From assembly GCA_964291405.2 (NCBI GenBank), contig OZ219926.1, forward strand, positions 3,584,001 through 3,648,000: a stretch of DNA of 64,000 nucleotides. Direction: 5' to 3'. Shown here one piece after another: positions 6,215 through 64,000 of this stretch. The position numbers and the translations under genes were made by a program. The notes under the pieces are model-generated. The model saw only the letters and a program-made list of their open reading frames with translations. It searched no databases and was not told where the DNA came from. Each line of letters opens with the position of its first letter. Position 1 is the first letter of the stretch. The stretch is from Thermodesulfobacteriota bacterium (GTDB taxonomy: Bacteria; Desulfobacterota; Binatia; Bin18).

Positions 6215-7423
6215 ATGCCCGGTGTGATAACTGGCGATGATTTGGGGGCGGCGCGACGACCGCTGTCCCAAGCCTCGATGCTCCCGCCTGCCTGTTACAC
6301 CTCGCCTGAATTTTATGCGCAAGAAGTCGAGCGAATTTTCTTGAAAGAATGGCTCTGTATCGGACGGACAGACCAGGTAGAGAAGCCGGGAGATTTTTTT
6401 ACACTGACGCTGCTGGGCGAGCGCCTAATTGTTGTCCGAGACGAGGACAACCAGGTTCGGGTGTTATCGAACGTCTGTCGGCATCGGGCCACTCAGGTGG
6501 TGGAAGGACACGGCAACCTCCGCCGGTTTGAGTGCCCCTACCACGGCTGGACCTACTCTCTGAAAGGTGAACTCATTGGCGCGCCCGAGATGCAACGCAC
6601 TGACAACTTTGACAAAGAACAGTGTCAATTAGCCTCGCCACGGGTCGAGACCTGGGAGGGGTTTATCTTTGTCAATTTTGATCAGCAGGCTGCGCCGCTT
6701 GGACCCAAGTTGGCTCCCCTCTCCGAGCGATTACAGCACTACCATCTGAGCGAGATGCAGACTGTCAAAACGTTAGTCTATGAGGGCAACTGGAATTGGA
6801 AGATCATGGTCGAGAACTATATGGAAGCCTACCACGTTCTTGGTCTGCATAAGGGACCGCACGATGTGATGCCAGTCCATTCCGTCCTTAATGCCTCGCA
6901 TCAGGCTTACAATATTACCAACGCGGCTTATAACGGCGCGTTTGGGATCATCTGGGGAGATTTCGCAACGCCGGGGGCAACGTTTTATTCACCGGGGGTG
7001 ACGGAAGCCGAACCTGGCAAGACCGAGTGGTTACCTTCTCCTTTCCCGTTGATTGAGAGTTTGTCTACCGAAGAGCGCCTGCGCGGAGACTTTATCAATA
7101 TCTATCCAACCCATCTCTTCACCCCGTTGCCGGATGGCATGTTTTATGGACAGATCCTGCCCCAAGCCGCTGACCGCATTACGTGGAGCCTGTCCCTGTG
7201 TTTCCCGCCAGAGACTTTAGAAATGCCCGACTTTGAGCAACACCTGGCACCCGCGATCGAGGGGATCGAGTTTATCAACTCACAGGACATGTGGGCGTGC
7301 GAGTCGGTTCAGCGGGGGTTGGTATCGCGTATGGCGCAGCCTGGACGCTACTGTCACCTCGAAGAATGTATCCATCAACTGGCGCAATACGTTATGGATA
7401 AAGTCCTGGACACACGAGCCTGA
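6215..7423 (+). CDS. Rieske oxygenase alpha subunit (choline monooxygenase-like)
   Basis: CRHR...CPYH Rieske motif; [19 protein letters not shown] iron site; AGGAGG RBS before 6215. Confidence 0.92.
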
Positions 7424-7448
7424 AACAGGCGCAGGAGAAGGAGAAGAT

Positions 7449-8330
7449 ATGGCCACAAAGGACATCAAGCTTGCCTATGGAATTGACGTGGACGCGGTCG
7501 GCGGCTGGCTGGGATCGTACGGTGGCGAAGACTCGCCGGACGATATTTCGCGCGGTCTGTTTGCCGGCGAAATCGGTGTACCGCGTTTGCTCAAGCTGTT
7601 TGAGAAGTACGGCATCAAGACAAGCTGGTTTATTCCTGGTCACTCGATCGAGACGTTTCCCGAGCAGACCCACATGATTGTTGAGGCCGGACACGAGATT
7701 GGGGCACACGGCTACTCCCACGAAAATCCGATTGCCATGACACCCCAGCAAGAGGAAGACGTGCTGGTCAAAACCATCGGCCTGATCGAGGAAAAGTCGG
7801 GCAACCGTCCGTCCGGTTATGTGGCCCCGTGGTGGGAGTTCTCGAACGTGACCAACGAACTCCTGCTCAAACACGGTTTCCACTATGACCACAGTCTGAT
7901 GCATAACGACTTCCATCCCTATTATGTCCGGGTCGGCGATACCTGGACCAATATCGACTACTCCAAACCGGCGGTAGAGTGGATGAAGCCGCTCATGCGC
8001 GGTGAGGAAACCGACCTGGTCGAGATTCCGGCCAATTGGTATCTCGACGACCTGCCGCCCATGATGTTCATCAAAAAATCGCCTAATAGCCACGGCTTTG
8101 TGAATCCCCGCGACATCGAACAAATGTGGCGTGATCAGTTCGACTGGATCTACCGCGAGTACGACTATGCCGTGTTCACCATGACCATCCATCCGGACGT
8201 GAGCGGTCGCCCGCAGGTGCTGATGATGCACGAGCGCCTGATTGAATATTTCAACAGTCACGCTGGTGTGAACTGGGCCACGTTTTCGGAGATCGCAGCG
8301 GACTTCGCCCACCGGCAACCGCGTCACTAG
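7449..8330 (+). CDS. CE4 polysaccharide deacetylase, H. pylori PgdA-like
   Basis: [55 protein letters not shown]. Confidence 0.9.
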
Positions 8331-55668: not shown

Positions 55669-55708
55669 CCCCTCTCGGGAGGGGTGCCGCGAAGCGACGG
55701 GGTGGGTT
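55669..55708 (+). repeat. REP-like GC-rich element, inverted partner of 61471-61510
   Basis: cccctctcgggaggggtgccgcgaagcgacggggtgggtt. Confidence 0.7.
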
Positions 55709-55776: not shown

Positions 55777-58542
55777 ATGGCCAGAGCCAACCAGACCCCG
55801 GAACAAGCTGCTCGCGAAAATATTGACAGCTTGCTCACCCAGGCCGGCTGGGCGGTCCAGGACAAAAATCGTATCGATCCCAAGGCGAGTCTCGGCCTTG
55901 CCATACGTGAATATCAGACCGATGCCGGGCCGGCCGACTACGTTCTCTGCATCGACAGGAAACCCGTCGGCGTGGTCGAGGCCAAGCCGGAACACTGGGG
56001 CCAGAAGATCACGACGGTCGAGGAGCAATCGGGACGTTACGCGTCCGCAAAACTCAAGTGGGCGAGCGACAGCACATCCTTACCCTTTGTGTACGAAAGC
56101 ACCGGCGTACTCACCCGTTTCACCGACGGACGCGACCCGAGACCGCGCTCCCGCGAGGTGTTCAGTTTTCCCCGGCCGGAGACCATGCAGGACTGGTACA
56201 CCCGGTCGGCCACGCTCCGCGCACGGCTCCGGGCGCTGCCGAGTTTAGACCCTACCGGCTTGAGAGCGTGCCAGGTCAACGCCATCGAGCAGCTCGAAGC
56301 CTCCTTCCAAGCTGACCGCCCGCGCGCCCTGATTCAAATGGCGACCGGCTCGGGCAAGACCTATACCGCCATCACCTCGATCTACCGGCTGCTCAAACAC
56401 GCGGACGCCAAACGTGTCCTCTTTCTGGTGGACACCAGGAACCTGGGCGAACAGGCCGAGCAGGAATTCATGGCCTACGTGCCCGGCGACGACAACCGCA
56501 AGTTCACCGAGCTGTACAACGTCCAGCGTCTCAAATCATCCTTTGTCGCCAAGGACAGTCAGGTCTGCATCAGCACCATCCAGCGTATGTACTCGCTGCT
56601 GAAGGACCAGGACATGGACGAAGCCGCCGAAGAGATCAACCCGGCGGAGATGGTCCAGCCCAAACGACCCATGCCGGTCGTTTATAACCCCAAGATTCCG
56701 CCCGAGTTCTTTGACTTCATCATCATCGACGAGTGTCACCGCTCGATTTACAACCTGTGGCGTCAGGTCCTGGAATACTTCGACGCCTATCTCATCGGTC
56801 TGACCGCCACACCCGACAACCGCACCTATGGTTTCTTCAAAACGAACGTCGTCAGCGAATACGACCACGAGCAGGCCGTCGCCGACGGCGTCAATGTCGG
56901 TAACGAAGTCTATGTCATCGACACGGAAAGAACCAAGCACGGCGGGCAACTCAAGGCCGAACAGCAGGTCGAAAAACGCGAGCGCCTGACACGCCGCAAG
57001 CGCTGGGAGATTCAGGACGAGGACCTCGCCTATACCGCCCGGGAACTCGACCACGCCATCGTCATCCCCGACCAGATTCGCACCATCGTCCGCACCTTTC
57101 GCGACAAGCTGCCGGAGATATTTCCCGGCCGCACCGAAGTGCCCAAGACGCTGGTTTTTGCCAAGACCGACAGCCACGCCGACGACATTATCCAGACTGT
57201 GCGTGAGGAATTCGCCCAAGGCAACGAGTTCTGTAAGAAGGTCACCTACAAAACCGAGGAAGACCCGAAATCCGTCCTGGCCCAGTTCCGCAACGACTAC
57301 CACCCGCGTATCGCCGTGACCGTGGACATGATCGCCACCGGCACAGACGTCAAGCCGCTCGAATGCCTGCTCTTCATGCGTGATGTCAAAAGCCGCAACT
57401 ATTTCGAGCAGATGAAGGGCCGTGGCACCCGCACCCTCGACCATGACGATCTTAAGAAAGTCTCGCCCTCCGCGGCCAGCGGCAAGACCCACTATGTGAT
57501 CGTGGACGCCGTCGGCGTCACACAATCACTCAAGACCGCCAGCCAGCCGCTCATCACCAAACCCTCCGTGCCGCTCAAGGACCTCGCCATGGGCGTGATG
57601 ATGGGCGCACATGACGAGGACACGGTCAGTTCCCTTGCAGGCCGTCTCGCCCGGCTCAACCAACAACTTGACCTCCCTGAGCAGGAACGTATCCGCGAAA
57701 AGGCCGGCGGCATCGCCCTCACCGACATCGTCGGTAATCTGCTGCACGCCATCGACCCGGACCAGGTCGAAGCCAAGGCCCGCGAGACCGAGTCCGTACC
57801 CGACGGTGCCGAACCCTCACCGGCCGCCCGCGAACAGGCCCAGGAGCAGTTGGTCCGTGACGCTACCGGTGTGTTCAACGGCGAGCTGATTGAACTGCTC
57901 GACTCGATTCGCCGCAACAAGGAGCAGACCATCGACCATGACAGCCTGGACCGAGTGTTGCGCGCCGAGTGGGAGGGTGACGCGCACGAGAACGCCGAAG
58001 CCCTGGCGCAGGATTTCCGGCACTATCTGGAAGCCAACCGCGATGAAATCGAAGCCCTGACCATTTTTTACGCCCAGCCACACCGCCGCCGTGAGTTGAC
58101 CTACGCCATGATCCGCGAGGTGTCCGACAGACTCAAGAACGACCGGCCCCGCCTTTCCCCTTTGCGCGTCTGGCAGGCGTATACCCTGCTCGACGAATAC
58201 AAGGGACAGCAGCCTGCCACTGAACTGACCGCGCTCGTGGCCTTGATCCGCCGCGTCTGCGGCATTGACGCGACAATCTCACCCTATTCGGAAACCGTGC
58301 GCCGCAATTTTCAGCAGTGGATCATGACGCACCACAGCGGCAGCGGAGAGAAGTTCAACGAGGAGCAGATGGACTGGCTGCGCATGATTCGTGACCACAT
58401 CATCACCTCGTTTCATCTGGACCGCGACGATCTGGACATGGCTCCATTCGATGGCAAGGGCGGCATGGGGCAGATGTACAAGCTCTTCGGTGACCGGATG
58501 GATGATGTGATTGATGAGTTGAATGAGGCGCTAGCCGCATGA
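55777..58542 (+). CDS. hsdR: Type I restriction enzyme R subunit (EcoEI-like C-terminus)
   Basis: ADY...EAK nuclease motif, MATGSGKT, DECH, TAT, QMKGRGTR. Confidence 0.95.
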   Translation: MARANQTPEQAARENIDSLLTQAGWAVQDKNRIDPKASLGLAIREYQTDAGPADYVLCIDRKPVGVVEAKPEHWGQKITTVEEQSGRYASAKLKWASDSTSLPFVYESTGVLTRFTDGRDPRPRSREVFSFPRPETMQDWYTRSATLRARLRALPSLDPTGLRACQVNAIEQLEASFQADRPRALIQMATGSGKTYTAITSIYRLLKHADAKRVLFLVDTRNLGEQAEQEFMAYVPGDDNRKFTELYNVQRLKSSFVAKDSQVCISTIQRMYSLLKDQDMDEAAEEINPAEMVQPKRPMPVVYNPKIPPEFFDFIIIDECHRSIYNLWRQVLEYFDAYLIGLTATPDNRTYGFFKTNVVSEYDHEQAVADGVNVGNEVYVIDTERTKHGGQLKAEQQVEKRERLTRRKRWEIQDEDLAYTARELDHAIVIPDQIRTIVRTFRDKLPEIFPGRTEVPKTLVFAKTDSHADDIIQTVREEFAQGNEFCKKVTYKTEEDPKSVLAQFRNDYHPRIAVTVDMIATGTDVKPLECLLFMRDVKSRNYFEQMKGRGTRTLDHDDLKKVSPSAASGKTHYVIVDAVGVTQSLKTASQPLITKPSVPLKDLAMGVMMGAHDEDTVSSLAGRLARLNQQLDLPEQERIREKAGGIALTDIVGNLLHAIDPDQVEAKARETESVPDGAEPSPAAREQAQEQLVRDATGVFNGELIELLDSIRRNKEQTIDHDSLDRVLRAEWEGDAHENAEALAQDFRHYLEANRDEIEALTIFYAQPHRRRELTYAMIREVSDRLKNDRPRLSPLRVWQAYTLLDEYKGQQPATELTALVALIRRVCGIDATISPYSETVRRNFQQWIMTHHSGSGEKFNEEQMDWLRMIRDHIITSFHLDRDDLDMAPFDGKGGMGQMYKLFGDRMDDVIDELNEALAA

Positions 58543-58597
58543 AGGAAGAAGGGAGAAGGAAAAAGGATGAAGTTGTGGACCTTCGGATTCGGACGAA
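58444..58597 (+). repeat. hsdR 3' end plus purine-rich leader, copy A (diverged direct repeat of 59773-59939)
   Basis: PFDGKGG.GQM.KLFGDRMDDVIDELN plus MKEEGRRKK leader occur twice. Confidence 0.92.
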
Positions 58598-58946
58598 GGA
58601 GTTTGCACTGCGGATCATTCGCCTTTACTCAGGTCTTCCCAAGCGGACCGAGGCTCAAGTAATAGGCGGGCAAATTATTCGTTCTGGAACGTCTGTAGGA
58701 GCAAATTACCGGGAGGCATATCGCGCGCGGAGCAAAGCGGAGTTCATCGCAAAGGCTGGCGACTGTTTGAAGGAGATTGAGGAAACCGGTTATTGGCTTG
58801 AGCTGCTTGTCGATTCAGGAATTGTTTCCGAGGATCGACTTGAGAACTTGAGAAACGAATGTGGTGAATTAACTGCGATATTCGTCACTTCCATTCGGAA
58901 TGCGAAGAGCAATGAAGAAAGGCAAAAGGGAGAAGGAAAAAAGTAG
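58539..58946 (+). CDS. Four-helix-bundle protein (23S rRNA IVP / bAvd-like)
   Basis: RT..FALRII.L...LP, QIIRSGTSVGANYREA.RARS..EF..K, E.EET.YWLELL. Confidence 0.92.
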   Translation: MKEEGRRKKDEVVDLRIRTKEFALRIIRLYSGLPKRTEAQVIGGQIIRSGTSVGANYREAYRARSKAEFIAKAGDCLKEIEETGYWLELLVDSGIVSEDRLENLRNECGELTAIFVTSIRNAKSNEERQKGEGKK

Positions 58947-58960
58947 AAGGAGAAAGGATC

Positions 58961-59028
58961 ATACGGGCGCCAGACTGCGCGTTGATTTTGACCGGCATTT
59001 CTTCCTTCTGCCTTCCTCCTTCTTCCTT
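58961..59028 (+). repeat. Diverged copy of an internal hsdS segment (60296-60362)
   Basis: cgcgttgattttgacc..atttcttccttctgccttcctcctt.ttcctt is shared, with one indel. Confidence 0.9.
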
Positions 59029-59062
59029 AGATCGCATAGAGACAGGTGGCCGGTCTCAGTGC

Positions 59063-59404
59063 TCACGGAGTTGCAGCTTGGGCGTCCCCCGTCTCTCTTC
59101 CCTCCGTGCCGAGCGCCTGCACGACCGAATCCGGATCGTGGTCTATCACGGTCAGCAGTACACGGGCGGCCCGGTCTGGAACCCGGCGGCCCTGTTCCCA
59201 GTCCTGCACGGCACGTACATCAAGGCCAAAACGGTCGGCGAATTTCTGCCGGCTCAGCTTCAGACGTTTGCGAAGCGCGACGATCCGCCCAGCGCTGGGG
59301 TCGTCCACGATCCGGCAGGAAAGTGCTGTCTCACCGCGCACATGGGCAAGCACCTCGCCCAGGGCTGTTTCAATCTCTTGGCCGATGTTGGTGCGTTCCT
59401 TCAT
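59063..59404 (-). CDS. HigA-like XRE-HTH antitoxin
   Basis: LRKRLKLSRQKFA..FGL....QDWEQGRR.PD..AR.LL. Confidence 0.85.
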   Translation of the reverse strand: MKERTNIGQEIETALGEVLAHVRGETALSCRIVDDPSAGRIVALRKRLKLSRQKFADRFGLDVRAVQDWEQGRRVPDRAARVLLTVIDHDPDSVVQALGTEGRETGDAQAATP

Positions 59405-59730
59405 TTTTCTCGCCTCTCTTTTCTGATCGCCGCCACCAGCTTGGACAACGCCTTGACGTCCGCCGCCGTCAGATCGTCGCGGTCCGCCTTCGCATAGGCC
59501 GTCAGCATATAGATGGCTTCGGGGCCAGGGTAGAAGTAGATTACGCGAAGGCCACCCCGCTTGCCACGACCGGAACCGGCCCAGCGCAACTTGCGGATGC
59601 CGCCCGTCCCCCGGATAACGGGTGCCGTATCGGGAGTGGACATGATCGTCGCTTCCATTTCCCTCCGGGCTTCTGGCGAAAGCAGCTTACGAATGGCGCG
59701 TTCATAGGTGCGGGTAAAGTACAGGTGCAT
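59401..59730 (-). CDS. RelE/HigB family toxin
   Basis: I.GTGGIRKLRW...GRGKRGG.RVIYF, AYAK....DL. Confidence 0.9.
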   Translation of the reverse strand: MHLYFTRTYERAIRKLLSPEARREMEATIMSTPDTAPVIRGTGGIRKLRWAGSGRGKRGGLRVIYFYPGPEAIYMLTAYAKADRDDLTAADVKALSKLVAAIRKERREK

Positions 59731-59737
59731 TGGCTCT

Positions 59738-59764
59738 CAATTATGCGGCAATGCCGCATAATTG
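59738..59764. promoter_or_regulatory. Perfect inverted repeat, putative TA operator
   Basis: CAATTATGCGGCA-A-TGCCGCATAATTG just upstream of the toxin ATG. Confidence 0.7.
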
Positions 59765-59772
59765 GCAAGATG

Positions 59773-59939
59773 CCGTTCGATGGCAAGGGCGGCAAGGGGC
59801 AGATGGATAAGCTCTTCGGCGACCGGATGGATGATGTGATTGATGAGTTGAATGGGGTGTTGGCGGTGTGAAGGAAAAACATGAAGGAAGAAGGGAGAAG
59901 GAAAAAGGCGGAAGTGGCGGAGCTTCGGACTCGGACGAA
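59773..59939 (+). repeat. hsdR 3' end plus leader, copy B
   Basis: Diverged copy of 58444-58597 with a 13-nt insert. Confidence 0.9.
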
Positions 59940-61488
59940 CGTGGCGCATGAAGCGATACCGATCAGAGAAGTACTCATCCCGAGAAATGAGAAGGTCACG
60001 CCTGCCGACTATCCTGAGTTGCCTTATATTGGTCTTGACGACATTGAAGCTCATTCCATGCGTTTGCTCGGTTCAAAACCCGCTGCAAGCATGAAAAGTT
60101 CTGCCAAACGTTTCTATCCTGGCGATGTGCTTTACTCGCGGCTCCGTCCATATCTGAACAAAGTCTGGCTGTCGGACCGCAACGGTATTTGCTCATCCGA
60201 GTTCATCGTGATGCCCGGCAATCAGCTCGTGGACCCCGGCTTTCTCGCACTCAGGCTCAACGCGATAGATTTCGTTTCATTCGCAAACAGCTTGAATGCG
60301 GGCGATAGACCACGCGTTGATTTTGACCAAATTTCTTCCTTCTGCCTTCCTCCTTTTTCCTTGTCGCAACAGCACCGCATCGTCACCAAGATTGAGGAAC
60401 TATTTTCCGAACTGGACAAAGGCATCGAAAGCCTGAAAACCGCTCAGGCGCAACTCAAGGTCTATCGCCAGGCCGTGCTCAAGCATGCCCTCGAAGGCAA
60501 GCTCACGGCGCAGTGGCGCGAAGAGAGCAGAGACAAGCTTGAGAAACCCGAGCGACTGCTCGCCCGTATCAAGAAGGAGCGGGCGGTGCGCTACGAGCGG
60601 CAACTCAAGGAGTGGGAGGTTGCTGTCAAGGAGTGGGAGGGAAGCGGAAAATCTGGAAGAAAGCCTCCCAAGCCGCAAAAACCGAAAAATCCATTGCCTA
60701 TCGCGGTTAGTCAGGTAGATAACCCTTTCTGGACTCGCCTTTTCTTGGATGAACTCGCGGCCGAGGCCGTGCTCGGTAAAATGCTGGACAAGGAAAAGAA
60801 TACAGGTACGCCTAGGTACTATCTCGGCAATATCAACCTTCGCTGGGGGAAGTTCGACCTCGAAAACTTAAAGACGATGAAAGTGGAGGAAAGCGAAATC
60901 GAGCGCTACCGCTTAGAAAAGGGAGACCTCGTTGTCTGTGAAGGCGGCGAGCCCGGACGATGTGCAGTATGGGAAGGACAGGAGTCTACCATGCTGATTC
61001 AAAAAGCTCTTCATCGCGTACGTTTCACGGAGAGCTATAGTCCATACTTCGCATATTACTTCATGACTTACGCTGCTAGTTCAGGACTGCTCTCACCAAA
61101 TTTCACAGGGAGTACTATCAAGCATCTTACAGGCAAAGGACTGGGGAGTGTGTTGTTCCCACTTTGCACCTTGGCAGAGCAAAATCAGATCGTGCACTTC
61201 TTGGATAGAGCCTTTAATATATGTGATGAATTAGGTTGCCAAATCGAACGCGAAATCCGACGGTCTAATTCTCTCCGTCAGTCAGTTCTCAGTAAAGCCT
61301 TCTCCGGTCAACTCGTCCCGCAGGACCCGCACGACGAACCGGCCTCGGTTCTTCTGGACCGAATCAGGGCCGAAAGAGAGAAGGCGGTGAAGAACAACCA
61401 CACCAAGAAAACAAAGAAGAGAAAGACGACTGCACGAATACCGCTCCCATCGTCTCCAAAGTCTGGAGATAACCCACCCCGCCACTAA
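59881..61488 (+). CDS. hsdS: Type I restriction enzyme S subunit
   Basis: GDVLYSRLRPYLNK (TRD1), QHRIV.KIEELFSELD, LRQSVL.KAFSG.LV.QDP.DEPAS.LL.RI. Confidence 0.93.
   Translation: MKEEGRRKKAEVAELRTRTNVAHEAIPIREVLIPRNEKVTPADYPELPYIGLDDIEAHSMRLLGSKPAASMKSSAKRFYPGDVLYSRLRPYLNKVWLSDRNGICSSEFIVMPGNQLVDPGFLALRLNAIDFVSFANSLNAGDRPRVDFDQISSFCLPPFSLSQQHRIVTKIEELFSELDKGIESLKTAQAQLKVYRQAVLKHALEGKLTAQWREESRDKLEKPERLLARIKKERAVRYERQLKEWEVAVKEWEGSGKSGRKPPKPQKPKNPLPIAVSQVDNPFWTRLFLDELAAEAVLGKMLDKEKNTGTPRYYLGNINLRWGKFDLENLKTMKVEESEIERYRLEKGDLVVCEGGEPGRCAVWEGQESTMLIQKALHRVRFTESYSPYFAYYFMTYAASSGLLSPNFTGSTIKHLTGKGLGSVLFPLCTLAEQNQIVHFLDRAFNICDELGCQIEREIRRSNSLRQSVLSKAFSGQLVPQDPHDEPASVLLDRIRAEREKAVKNNHTKKTKKRKTTARIPLPSSPKSGDNPPRH
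61434..61468 (+). repeat. Degenerate duplicate of the hsdM 5' end (ATG changed to ACG)
   Basis: aCgaataccgctcccatcgtctccaaagtctggag versus hsdM atgactacgcagcctattgtctctaaagtctggag (PIVSKVW). Confidence 0.85.
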
Positions 61489-61510
61489 CGCGGCACCCCT
61501 CCAGGGAGGG
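61471..61510 (-). repeat. REP-like element, inverted partner of 55669-55708
   Basis: aacccaccccg...cgcggcacccctcc...ggg. Confidence 0.7.
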
Positions 61511-61540: not shown

Positions 61541-62155
61541 CTATATTATTCTGAGGTGGGAGGAAGGGATTGGATTCTCAAATTCATATAGCTTAGGGAC
61601 AGCTCTTAAATCCCCAAGAAGAAACCATGTTTGTCCAGTTGGAGGGCGAGCACCGAAAAGCCATATCTCTGCTACTGGAGTCTCTTCCGCTATCTGGGAA
61701 TACAAGGAAGGAATAATAGGTCCGTCTCGGTGGCCGTAAATAGCAACGGTCAATCCGGGAGAGTCGGGATATTGGTTAAGTTTGTTTATGATGTGATACA
61801 GGGTCTCTTTAGAATTCTTCTCGATAGAAGGAAGTTCCTTTAGCTGAACGGGTCTAAACTGGCGTGTTTTTGTCCCGTTCCAGGAAAGCACACAATCATA
61901 ATCGTCCTTCTCGTGTAGCCTTACCCCTACAGGTCTGTTGAGTATGCATTCTTGTACAGCTAAAGCGAATGCAGCAGCCATCCACCACTCTTTTACTTTC
62001 TTATGGTCTTTTTGAATAAGACCGTCCCAACTTAAGTTTTTTTCCTTTGCTTGGCGATAAAAATCCGCGAGTATTGATTCCGGTTGGTAATACTTTAAGG
62101 AACCCCATTGTCGTAACTGCATTTTTGTGGGACCTTCCCAATTCTTTCTGTTCAT
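61541..62155 (-). CDS. AT-rich hypothetical protein, possible PD-(D/E)XK-like nuclease
   Basis: 204-aa ORF with AGAGG RBS; DYD...VQLKE motif; composition differs from the backbone. Confidence 0.55.
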   Translation of the reverse strand: MNRKNWEGPTKMQLRQWGSLKYYQPESILADFYRQAKEKNLSWDGLIQKDHKKVKEWWMAAAFALAVQECILNRPVGVRLHEKDDYDCVLSWNGTKTRQFRPVQLKELPSIEKNSKETLYHIINKLNQYPDSPGLTVAIYGHRDGPIIPSLYSQIAEETPVAEIWLFGARPPTGQTWFLLGDLRAVPKLYEFENPIPSSHLRII

Positions 62156-62526
62156 GGAGTCCTCTTGCCTCTACGCTAGCAGAGTATCAAGCTGCGCCAG
62201 CTCGTCTGTGTATCGCTGAATATCCTGTAGGGTAGTGACAATATCCTTATGTTTGGGCGTCTCCGGCAACACTGCGTTCCGTCTTTTCACACTTCAAGAG
62301 CATATCAGCCCGTATGCGGTCCTGTTCCTCTGTTCCCATACTAACCTCTCCTTCTCATCGCTCTCTTCCATTTTTCTTCGTAGAGACAACCCCCTCCCTA
62401 CATTTGGGCGTGCCATACTTTTTCATTTGCTGTATAACTAAAAAATATAACAATTTGTTCTCCTTCCGCCCTGGACTATCCCTCTTTTTCCGGTACACTG
62501 TAAAAGGTGGAAGAAGGAGGCCAGCC

Positions 62527-62670
62527 ATGATGTCGCTCCTTGAACTTGCCGAACGGTTCCCAGACGAACAAGCAGCCCGGGACTGGTTTGAACGACTACG
62601 CTGGGAGGGGCAGCGCCGGTGCGGGTATTGCCAGTCAGCCCGTACCACAGCCGTGCCCATCGGTCCATGA
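62527..62670 (+). mobile_element. IS1595-family transposase remnant (N-terminal Zn ribbon)
   Basis: AGGAGG RBS; SLLEL..RFPDE.AAR.WFE..RW....C..C.S, then premature stop. Confidence 0.8.
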
Positions 62671-62801: not shown

Positions 62802-62958
62802 TGGATGGCTCAATAAGTTATTGATTTTGCTTAGGGTTATTTTTGAAGAACGTCTATTTTCTCGAAAATGGTTCGATAAGTTATTGATTTTCCTGACTTT
62901 TGGCCTGAGACCCCCCCCTATGCATCACAAAATGGTCTGATAAGTCCTTGATTTTCCT
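62802..62958. repeat. Three degenerate 30-bp repeats at 63-64 bp period, each with an IHF consensus
   Basis: ATGGnnnATAAGTnnTTGATTTTnCT at 62802, 62865 and 62929; matches YAANNNNTTGATW. Confidence 0.7.
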
Positions 62959-63278: not shown

Positions 63279-64000
63279 ATGACTACGCAGCCTATTGTCT
63301 CTAAAGTCTGGAGCTTCTGCACCACCCTGCGCGATGACGGGGTGAGCTATGGCGACTACCTGGAACAGCTCACCTATCTGATCTTTCTCAAGATGGCCGA
63401 CGAGTACGCCACACCGCCCTACAACCGCAATGTCGGCATCCCTGCCGAATACGACTGGCAGAGCCTGAAGTCGAAAAAAGGCGCGGAGCTTGAAAGCCAC
63501 TACGTCACCCTGCTTCGCGAGCTTGGCACCAGGAAAGGTATGCTGGGCCAGATTTTTACCAAGGCCCAGAACAAGATTCAGGACCCGGCCAAGCTGTTCC
63601 GCCTCATCGACATGGTGAACGACACCGAATGGGTGAGCATGGGTGCCGACGTGAAAGGGGATATTTACGAAGGGCTGCTTGAAAAGAACGCCGAAGACAC
63701 CAAGTCAGGCGCGGGCCAATATTTCACGCCGCGCGCCCTTATCCGCACCATAGTCGAATGCGTCCGGCCCGAACCGGGTAATCTCATCGCCGACCCGGCC
63801 TGCGGGACGGGCGGCTTCTTTCTGGCCGCCTATGACTTCATTATCAACTCGGGCAATTTCAACCCCGATAAGGAGCAGAAGGCGTTCCTCAAGCACAAGG
63901 CGTTTCACGGCAACGAGATCGTCGCCAACACGCGCCGGTTGTGCCTGATGAATATGTTCTTGCACAACATTGGTGAGATCGACGGCGACGCGCCTATTTC
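63279..64000 (+). CDS. hsdM: Type I restriction enzyme M subunit (runs off window edge)
   Basis: KVWSFCTTLRDDGVSYGDYLEQLTYLIFLKM, GAGQYFTPR, DPACGTGGF; not in ORF track. Confidence 0.95.
   Translation, partial: MTTQPIVSKVWSFCTTLRDDGVSYGDYLEQLTYLIFLKMADEYATPPYNRNVGIPAEYDWQSLKSKKGAELESHYVTLLRELGTRKGMLGQIFTKAQNKIQDPAKLFRLIDMVNDTEWVSMGADVKGDIYEGLLEKNAEDTKSGAGQYFTPRALIRTIVECVRPEPGNLIADPACGTGGFFLAAYDFIINSGNFNPDKEQKAFLKHKAFHGNEIVANTRRLCLMNMFLHNIGEIDGDAPI

Follow-up and report, generated by a model that had tools for sequence, protein, structure and literature searches.

The stretch analysed here (64,000 nucleotides of contig OZ219926.1 of a Thermodesulfobacteriota bacterium; hereafter the window) contains, according to open reading frame (ORF) and family profile scans, a type IB hsdR-hsdS-hsdM restriction-modification (R-M) operon that carries a doubled unit. 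We consider it probable that this unit represents two diverged copies of one module, joined around a HigBA-type toxin-antitoxin (TA) pair, which have decayed in a complementary manner and which are bordered by two complementary heptamer arrays as arms, here termed R and Y, with no specificity switch operating. The basic module appears to consist of the hsdR 3' end, the R array, a gene for a four-helix-bundle protein (4HB), the first target recognition domain (TRD1) of hsdS, the Y array, and the central region of hsdS. Judged from sequence comparison, the R-M operon belongs to a horizontally spread family, and R and Y seem to be the complementary arms that are typical of the cassettes of this 4HB subfamily.

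Structure of the doubled unit

A unit comprising the hsdR 3' end, a leader (MKEEGRRKK), a variable element, and a terminal segment of hsdS type occurs twice, at the places where an earlier note on this DNA had seen it. The left flank (58444-58597 against 59773-59939) is 88-90% identical between the copies, with 13 extra nt in copy B, and the right flank (58961-59028 against 60296-60362) is composed of two blocks of 85% and 97% identity with a 1-nt indel between them; the divergence of the flanks is 10-12%, and the longest exact runs are 34, 29 and 25 nt. The 25-nt purine leader (up to 3 mismatches allowed) was found at 3 sites in the window and at 0 in 100 shuffles.

The left flank is the 3' end of hsdR (55777-58542, + strand), an intact, type IB-like gene (PF08463 EcoEI_R_C, 1.1e-40; ResIII, Helicase_C and HSDR_N), the 3'-most ~100 nt of which represent copy A of this flank (58444-58541). 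The variable element of unit A is the 4HB gene (58539-58946, + strand), which is intact and the sole copy in the genome; the match to TIGR02436 scored 98.7 bits against a cut-off of 24 and covers positions 4-108 of 109, and the match to PF05635 scored 75.7 against 33.8. In unit B, the variable element is TRD1 (59937-60330) of an intact hsdS gene (59881-61488, + strand). The TA pair, a RelE-fold gene (59401-59730) and a helix-turn-helix (HTH) gene (59063-59404), lies between the units, both genes on the minus strand.

Copy A retains only the final 35 nt of TRD1 ahead of its Y array (58961-58996, + strand; GARLRVDFD), the remaining TRD1 being deleted; the frame opened by the ATG at 58912 gives MKKGKREKEKSRRRKDHTGARLRVDFD and leaves the hsdS frame after the 1-nt insertion, as the earlier note had described. 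Copy B starts with a relic of the hsdR 3' end (59773-59871, + strand; ending in LNGVLAV and a stop codon) that is nearest to the allele of genome G006, followed by the 13 extra nt; downstream of its R array, ~25 nt of 4HB 5' coding sequence continue up to 59939. The observation that 4HB and TRD1 occupy equivalent slots between the same two elements extends to loci outside the window: R and Y arrays are found around 4HB alone (L146), around TRD1 alone (e.g. L113, L119, L127 and L132), and around 4HB and TRD1 together (G015, L105-107, L112 and L115).

Heptamer arrays R and Y

At the nucleotide level, the sequences behind the MKEEGRRKK leader and the ISSFCLPP flank form tandem heptamer arrays that are complementary to each other, with four AAGG and four CCTT motifs, respectively, at 7-nt spacing. 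R array 1, the 5' arm (58542-58569, + strand; AAGG at 58542, 58549, 58556 and 58563), is translated as the MKEEGRRKK leader of 4HB, the ATG of which overlaps the hsdR stop codon. R array 2 (58919-58960, + strand) is a direct array of six heptamers, one of them degenerate, which is translated as the 4HB tail and corresponds to the array ahead of the hsdS start in L112 and L115. The R array of copy B (59884-59911, + strand; AAGG at 59884, 59891, 59898 and 59905) is located just downstream of the hsdS ATG (59881). The Y array of copy A (58997-59028, + strand; CCTT at 59004, 59011, 59018 and 59025) is no longer coding; the Y array of copy B (60331-60362, + strand; CCTT at 60338, 60345, 60352 and 60359) encodes ISSFCLPPFSL and is placed at the boundary of TRD1 and the central region of hsdS. 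The R-array pattern was detected at only three sites in the window, and the whole genome has the Y-array pattern at 58999-59028 and 60333-60362 only.

The 4HB gene of the window is framed by complementary arms (R, 58542-58569; Y, 58997-59028), like other repeat-armed 4HB cassettes; the arrangement is unusual for such a cassette in the extra direct array between the arms and in the position of TRD1 between the arms in copy B and in G015. The copy-A Y array is predicted to form duplexes of -37.3 kcal/mol with R array 1 and of -35.7 kcal/mol with R array 2, and the energies of the three R:Y duplexes (-37.3, -35.7 and -38.2 kcal/mol) were reached by 1, 2 and 3, respectively, of 300 composition-preserving shuffles. 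In L112, L114 and L115, the variable codon of Y is ATC and the cognate R array, which reads AAGGATGAAGG, takes in the hsdS start codon, so that Y is complementary to the Shine-Dalgarno repeats plus the AUG. The Y array includes CCUCC, the motif of the anti-Shine-Dalgarno sequence in 16S rRNA.

Relatives and origin of the two copies

The locus is syntenic in the genus, for which 11 in-situ loci were compared. In G015 (same genus; 90-91% identical), the order is hsdR-R-4HB-hsdS(TRD1-Y), with no HigBA and no duplication, and hsdS begins with MNVEHEAILIG right at the 4HB stop. In G021, G017 and G006, hsdR directly abuts an hsdS with other TRD1 types; G002 (contig C2) has an insert, then a short hsdR-3' relic, and another TRD1 type, and in G001 the gap between hsdR and hsdS is occupied by a VapBC pair and relics of the hsdR 3' end. 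In G041 and G005, R is followed by 80 nt of 4HB, a relic of VapB, a repetitive extragenic palindromic (REP) hairpin, and a short relic of hsdR. G010 has half of a 4HB, then 33 nt of Y, fragments of HigA/HigB, a relic of hsdR, and a different TRD1. In G023, hsdR is internally deleted, and R, 35 nt, and Y come next, before HigBA and a partial relic; hsdS is missing. The junction of R array 2 and the 35 nt in copy A, GGATCAT(A/G)CGGGCG, is common to G023, and the junction of HigB and the relic is common to G023 and G002 (contig C3).

The hsdR relic of copy B is 92.6% identical to the G006 allele as against 88.3% to the resident hsdR, and copy B shares the 13-nt insert and an array variant with G041; copy B is thus not a fresh copy of the resident sequence. 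Furthermore, blocks of HigBA plus hsdR relic are present at ectopic sites in G002 and G015, which indicates that the block moves. In every relative, the hsdR end or a relic thereof directly abuts or overlaps the hsdS start, which may explain the survival of the relic via translational coupling.

The N-terminus of hsdS is an in-frame fusion of the 4HB leader and TRD1 at a GAA microhomology (59937-59939). Since the hsdS leader and the next ~25 nt equal the 4HB 5' end when compared with G015, copy B represents a G015-like module that has lost the 4HB body. In the sequence of events that we favour, a second allele most probably arrived through a recombination event with its anchor in hsdS or hsdM. 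Copy A would have kept hsdR and 4HB, and its TRD1 would have been deleted, except for 35 nt and the Y array, between the second R array and these final 35 nt; of hsdR and the 4HB gene, copy B would have kept only ~100 and 58 nt, respectively, the 4HB body being lost through an in-frame deletion at the GAA microhomology, so that one intact gene of each kind would be left. With the in-frame loss of the 4HB body, hsdS would be translated from the 4HB start codon and leader.

A tandem duplication in situ of the segment hsdR3'-R-4HB-TRD1-Y, with later insertion of HigBA at the joint, reciprocal deletions, and no imported allele, would involve the fewest DNA sources; the two copies agree in TRD1 type and in their arrays, and the occurrence of the architecture in several species makes it old enough for 10-12% divergence. 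We consider this origin unlikely, however, because the relic and the array variant of copy B group with G006 and G041 rather than with the resident hsdR, and because the HigBA-relic block is mobile.

The VapBC pair of G001 (L018, ~6810-7780) consists of an AbrB-type antitoxin and a PIN toxin, followed by the hsdR-3' relics, and remnants of a VapB of this type were also found in G041 and G005; the hsdR/hsdS joint appears to be a hotspot for TA insertion. In comparison with positions 57800-60650 of the window, the hsdR-4HB-hsdS DNA of L105, L107, L108 and L109 is 77-90% identical, and TRD1 is 83-93% identical at the protein level; the metagenome-assembled genome (MAG) labels of this set are Entotheonellaceae, Nitrospirales, Pseudomonadota and Acidobacteriota, and the likeness points to a recent cross-phylum transfer of what seems to be the whole operon.

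Evidence on a specificity switch

The earlier note had proposed a recombinase-free switch, in which recombination between the left flanks sheds 4HB and HigBA, recombination between the right flanks removes TRD1, and HigBA holds the block; the loss of TRD1 would leave a half-size HsdS with a new palindromic specificity. The equivalence of the slots and the direct-repeat geometry are as described there; a working switch in this strain is unsupported, given that joints were not found and that the locus is in decay in relatives. The predicted deletions are possible, since the flanks form direct repeats that share exact runs of 34, 29 and 25 nt; in addition, the 4HB gene of G023 is gone exactly between two R arrays, the loss of a TRD at short flanking repeats is documented for other species in PMC3077401, and the ATG at 58912 would be in frame if the crossover took place upstream of the 1-nt indel. 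On the other side, no flank-to-flank joint was found in two assemblies (X1 and X2 contigs) that reproduce the stretch at 100%; both show this arrangement only, and the X2 depth is flat, at 33-40x across both units and HigBA (57800-61400). Joints from 58916 to 59937 and from 59864 to 60370/60375 were observed at low depth; they stem from contigs of ~90% identity, i.e. from co-occurring relatives with the G015-like form or other TRD1 alleles. The right-flank deletion product was found in 0 of the 11 in-situ loci of the genus, and the same architecture is present in decay in G010, G005, G041 and G023. The flanks are 10-12% diverged, with no homogenisation, and the 25-nt exact run, the best for a crossover, lies downstream of the indel, so that the product would be out of frame and no half-HsdS would result. 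Finally, the deletions are irreversible and hence do not make a switch.

Taken together, we regard the proposed switch as very unlikely; an active switch is unsupported, and the doubled unit is a recombination fossil, the flanks of which belong to a conserved pair of complementary heptamer arrays linked with a 4HB subfamily and a single TRD family. That HigBA stabilises the block is a fair inference. A route by which TRDs are gained and lost at repeats on either side of them, with no recombinase, has already been described under the name 'domain movement' (DoMo) in PMC3077401.

Distribution and constraint of the Y array

Collections of genomes and metagenomes supplied 15 and 22 loci with close relatives of TRD1, and 36 of these loci carry the GDRPR motif. 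According to titles and labels, they derive from Binatota, Tectimicrobiota, Acidobacteriota, Nitrospirota, Pseudomonadota, Verrucomicrobiota, Lentisphaerota and Planctomycetota; array-bearing loci occur in seven of these labelled phyla, i.e. all except Planctomycetota (MAG labels). The 4HB gene is located directly upstream in 16 of the 36 loci, in several phyla, and the full order hsdR-R1-4HB-R2-hsdS(TRD1-Y) recurs at ~70% identity (L115 and L112). With the one variable codon left out, the Y array is identical to that of the window at 25 or more of 30 positions in 24 of the 36 loci, and at 30 of 30 in eight, at TRD identities of only ~70%. When codons for the same amino acid were compared, synonymous differences were found in 16 of 117 codons in the Y array as against 110 of 189 in the 14 codons before it (Fisher p 2e-15; 14 loci, which are not independent), and in the 4HB genes of distant array loci synonymous sites are saturated (pS 0.76-0.95). 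The Y array in hsdS is constrained at the nucleotide level. It contains T-ending codons even in GC-rich carriers, and is enriched where 4HB is present (14/24 vs 2/12; p = 0.03). In L146, a canonical cassette outside R-M with a 4HB of the same subfamily, a 25-nt run of the 3' arm matches the Y arrays of L112 and L115 without a difference. In its nucleotides, the Y tract thus resembles a cassette arm, while the junction that it encodes in HsdS is native-like. An interpretation as purely native hsdS sequence was rejected, since the peptide is native-like but the nucleotides behave like an arm.

The arrays might also be without function, the purine tract being a Shine-Dalgarno-rich leader, the pyrimidine tract a run of Ser/Phe/Leu/Pro-rich HsdS codons, and their complementarity a coincidence. 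The peptide motif does occur in relatives without the array, solo purine or pyrimidine heptamer arrays are common near gene starts in some genomes, and covariation was weak when tested; but the CCTT motifs recur four times at an exact 7-nt spacing inside a coding frame, the duplexes beat 297-299 of 300 shuffles, and the strong synonymous deficit, the T-ending codons in GC-rich carriers and the 25-nt run shared with a bona fide cassette arm elsewhere all argue against coincidence, which we regard as highly improbable.

The Y pattern was found in 5 of 401 genomes of the window's phylum; in the four other than that of the window (G427, G075, G198 and G078), the matches are a cassette of canonical form, a hairpin with no cargo, and arrays standing alone. 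It was also found in 6 of 151 genomes of the phylum of L115, and none of nine pattern loci from five of these genomes lies in hsdS or next to a 4HB gene. In two genomes of ~2.2 Mb of the latter phylum (G512 and G548; e.g. L162 and L172), (CCTTCCT)n arrays number in the dozens; they lie on either strand, for the most part between genes and beside hairpins, and with the reversed-pattern control also high, they are a genome-wide repeat family.

Possible function of the arrays

Among the functions considered for the arrays, long-range pairing in the mRNA that gates translation or processing is our tentative first choice, held with somewhat less than even confidence; portable recombination flanks or binding sites of the 4HB protein are the alternatives that may be envisaged. 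R and Y would pair in the mRNA, Y being complementary to R in its Shine-Dalgarno-like repeats and its AUG, and the pairing would throttle the translation of 4HB and hsdS or create an RNase III site, by analogy with the 4HB-bearing intervening sequences (IVS) of rRNA.

Several points weigh against this interpretation, and against our reading of the locus in general. The pairing model is based on energy and complementarity; the comparison of cognate with non-cognate R/Y pairs across 13 loci gave a weak result (156 of 5000 permutations were as low), L111 carries Y with no clear R array nearby, and a 4HB within 700 nt is missing from 10 of the 24 loci that bear the array. In relatives without the array, the peptide I(G/S)(P/S)F.LPPF is retained with other codons (e.g. 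IGPFQLPPFSA), and Y may be hsdS sequence that was tuned at synonymous sites rather than an imported arm. With respect to the doubling, the order of events has no unique reconstruction, a tandem duplication in situ with subsequent insertion of HigBA being one possible order. Similarly, contigs drop minor variants, and rare recombinants may exist.

One recognition domain on two hsdS frameworks

The central region of hsdS was examined in 28 loci, of which two have a truncated central region and 26 were classed. A central region of the IEELFSELD type, 58-83% identical to that of the window, is present in 14 of the 26 loci, and one of the IEKQFTRLE type, only 25-48% identical, in the other 12; the identity of TRD1 is 59-93% in the former group and 65-75% in the latter, and arrays are present in 8/14 and 9/12 loci, respectively. 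In L113 and L119, the DNA homology to the window stops at the end of Y. When the array was placed as a label on a TRD1 tree, 6 changes were needed, at least 2 of them forced by supported branches. The joining of one TRD to two hsdS frameworks, with the array at the joint, shows TRD shuffling.

These observations might be taken to mean that the R and Y arms form a portable border, within which a segment R-(4HB)-TRD1-Y moves between phyla and between hsdS frameworks, the TRD having been captured or the 3' arm fused; the near-invariant 30-nt arrays would then be recombination flanks or sites for the 4HB protein. We regard this extension as rather doubtful. No arrays around another TRD family were found among the pattern matches in the 401 genomes of the window's phylum and the nine loci of the L115 phylum, so that a general cassette-exchange system is unsupported.

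The 4HB gene and its cassettes

The 4HB gene has a dN/dS of 0.03-0.08 in comparison with close relatives and is under strong purifying selection. The TIGR02436 family is present in 88 of 151 genomes of the phylum sampled. For 29 of the 30 best 4HB loci of this phylum, located by family search (blastp with the 4HB of the window missed 28 of the 30), the complementarity of upstream and downstream flanks was above that of all of 30 shuffles; the exception is L044, in which the arrays are direct. At the other 26 4HB loci of the genus, arms were seen by eye, with a heptamer or octamer specific to each lineage. A general association of 4HB with type I R-M was considered and discarded, as the ORFs beside 30 sampled 4HB loci (99 in total) include no type I gene; 4HB cassettes are promiscuous in genomic context. 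Full-text searches of the literature yielded no report of 4HB genes that lie within type I loci or carry heptamer arms.

At another R-M locus of the genus (L099/L060; G012, contig C1, 4150355-4152590), a 4HB gene of the same subfamily, with the arms GATTGTG/CACAATC, precedes a distant homologue of TRD1 (35% identity) by ~1.5 kb. L144 (G075, contig C10, ~1455-1530) is an 'empty' purine/pyrimidine-array hairpin with no cargo, which resembles the R2-35 nt-Y hairpin of the window (58919-59028) and that of G023.

Other features of the operon

The HsdR protein scored below the equivalog cut-offs for the EcoAI family and PRK11448 (203.9 vs 550 and 384 vs 729 bits), and appears to represent a related but diverged subfamily. 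HsdS contains two TRDs, with TRD2 recognised by Pfam Methylase_S, TRD1 by its relatives, and a central region that is kept in relatives. The hsdM gene (63279-64000, + strand; PF02384, N6_Mtase, and PF12161, HsdM_N) is cut by the end of the window.

The gene of the higB-like toxin (59401-59730, - strand; PF06296, RelE fold, 35.1 against a cut-off of 27) comes first and overlaps by 4 nt with that of the higA-like antitoxin (59063-59404, - strand; HTH_3/HTH_31, with an MqsA-type C-terminus), a gene order of HigBA type; the pair is accordingly classed as a putative HigBA-type TA pair. A 23-nt palindrome (59740-59762) is located upstream of the toxin gene. A 323-aa frame running antisense through HigBA (58900-59871) was taken as spurious.

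An insert of 1.5 kb between hsdS and hsdM (61.5-63.0 kb) is an unrelated sequence that is not present in relatives; it encodes a 204-aa ORF (61541-62155, - strand) with no family match, and a fragment at 62314-62670 has a zinc ribbon of IS1595 type. Upstream of a small ORF before hsdM, a 30-nt unit is present in three direct copies (62802-62958; spacing 63-64 nt, 80-100% identical). A REP-like palindrome of ~40 nt at 61471-61510 and 55670-55708 forms an inverted pair around the hsdR-hsdS block (22 nt, 91% complementary), and many copies of this element are found across genomes of the genus and of a related order.

Significance and comparison with known systems

The doubled unit itself is an ordinary recombination fossil in a defence locus. 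Of wider interest is a stretch of ~30 nt in a specificity gene that distant bacteria have kept almost unchanged while the synonymous sites beside it have been scrambled, that is the reverse complement of a repeat array at the start of the upstream 4HB gene or of hsdS, and that stands at the joint where one recognition domain is joined to two hsdS frameworks. The family TIGR02436/PF05635 is uncharacterised, its relatives being Avd of diversity-generating retroelements and the ORFs of rRNA intervening sequences. The locus gives this family a concrete setting, and with it the question whether the arrays form an RNA stem gating translation or processing, or DNA sites moving genes. If the portable border were true, it would represent a new cassette-like route for the exchange of type I specificity, and a first functional context for the long-unexplained protein family of the 23S rRNA IVS.

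In hsdS shufflons (pneumococcal, mycoplasma), inverted hsdS' copies and a site-specific recombinase vary the type I specificity. No recombinase gene, silent hsdS' copy or inverted TRD segment was found in ORF and family scans of 52-64 kb, and the inverted repeats at the locus are the R/Y arrays and the REP-like elements only. Small genes lodge between hsd genes elsewhere, e.g. PrrC in EcoprrI, the rlo genes of Campylobacter, and TA modules. Similarly, HigBA, VapBC and 4HB all sit at the hsdR/hsdS joint in this genus; unlike occasional lodgers, 4HB is directly upstream in 16 of the 36 loci of the TRD family, yet 0 of 30 random 4HB genes are near type I genes.

DoMo, as described for Helicobacter pylori, Streptococcus pyogenes and Mycoplasma agalactiae (PMC3077401), concerns TRDs bounded by repeats of 14-53 bp and explains the substitution, loss (single-TRD genes) and duplication of TRDs without a dedicated recombinase; in this description, it is close to the mechanism that the earlier note had proposed. 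The layout differs, in that direct repeat pairs x and y surround both TRDs in DoMo as described there (x-TRD1-y-x-TRD2-y), whereas in the window TRD1 alone is bracketed; the end of TRD2 reads FPLCTLAEQNQIV and carries no array. Furthermore, R and Y are reverse complements, unlike the DoMo pairs, and the direct duplication results solely from the module being present twice.

The closest known design, as far as it is described in PMC4990558, is the ORF-bearing IVS of rRNA. In the 23S rRNA of Coxiella burnetii, a PF05635/4HB (S23p) ORF lies in a loop closed by complementary ends, which form a 28-bp stem that is cut by RNase III, and ORF-bearing IVS (also of Leptospira and Salmonella) are regarded there as selfish and horizontally acquired (PMC4990558). 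Both designs have a 4HB ORF between complementary termini. They differ in that the element of the window resides in a protein-coding operon instead of an rRNA and has tandem heptamer arrays as arms, and in that its 5' arm is translated as a leader, while its 3' arm is located ~430-800 nt away in hsdS and encodes part of HsdS.

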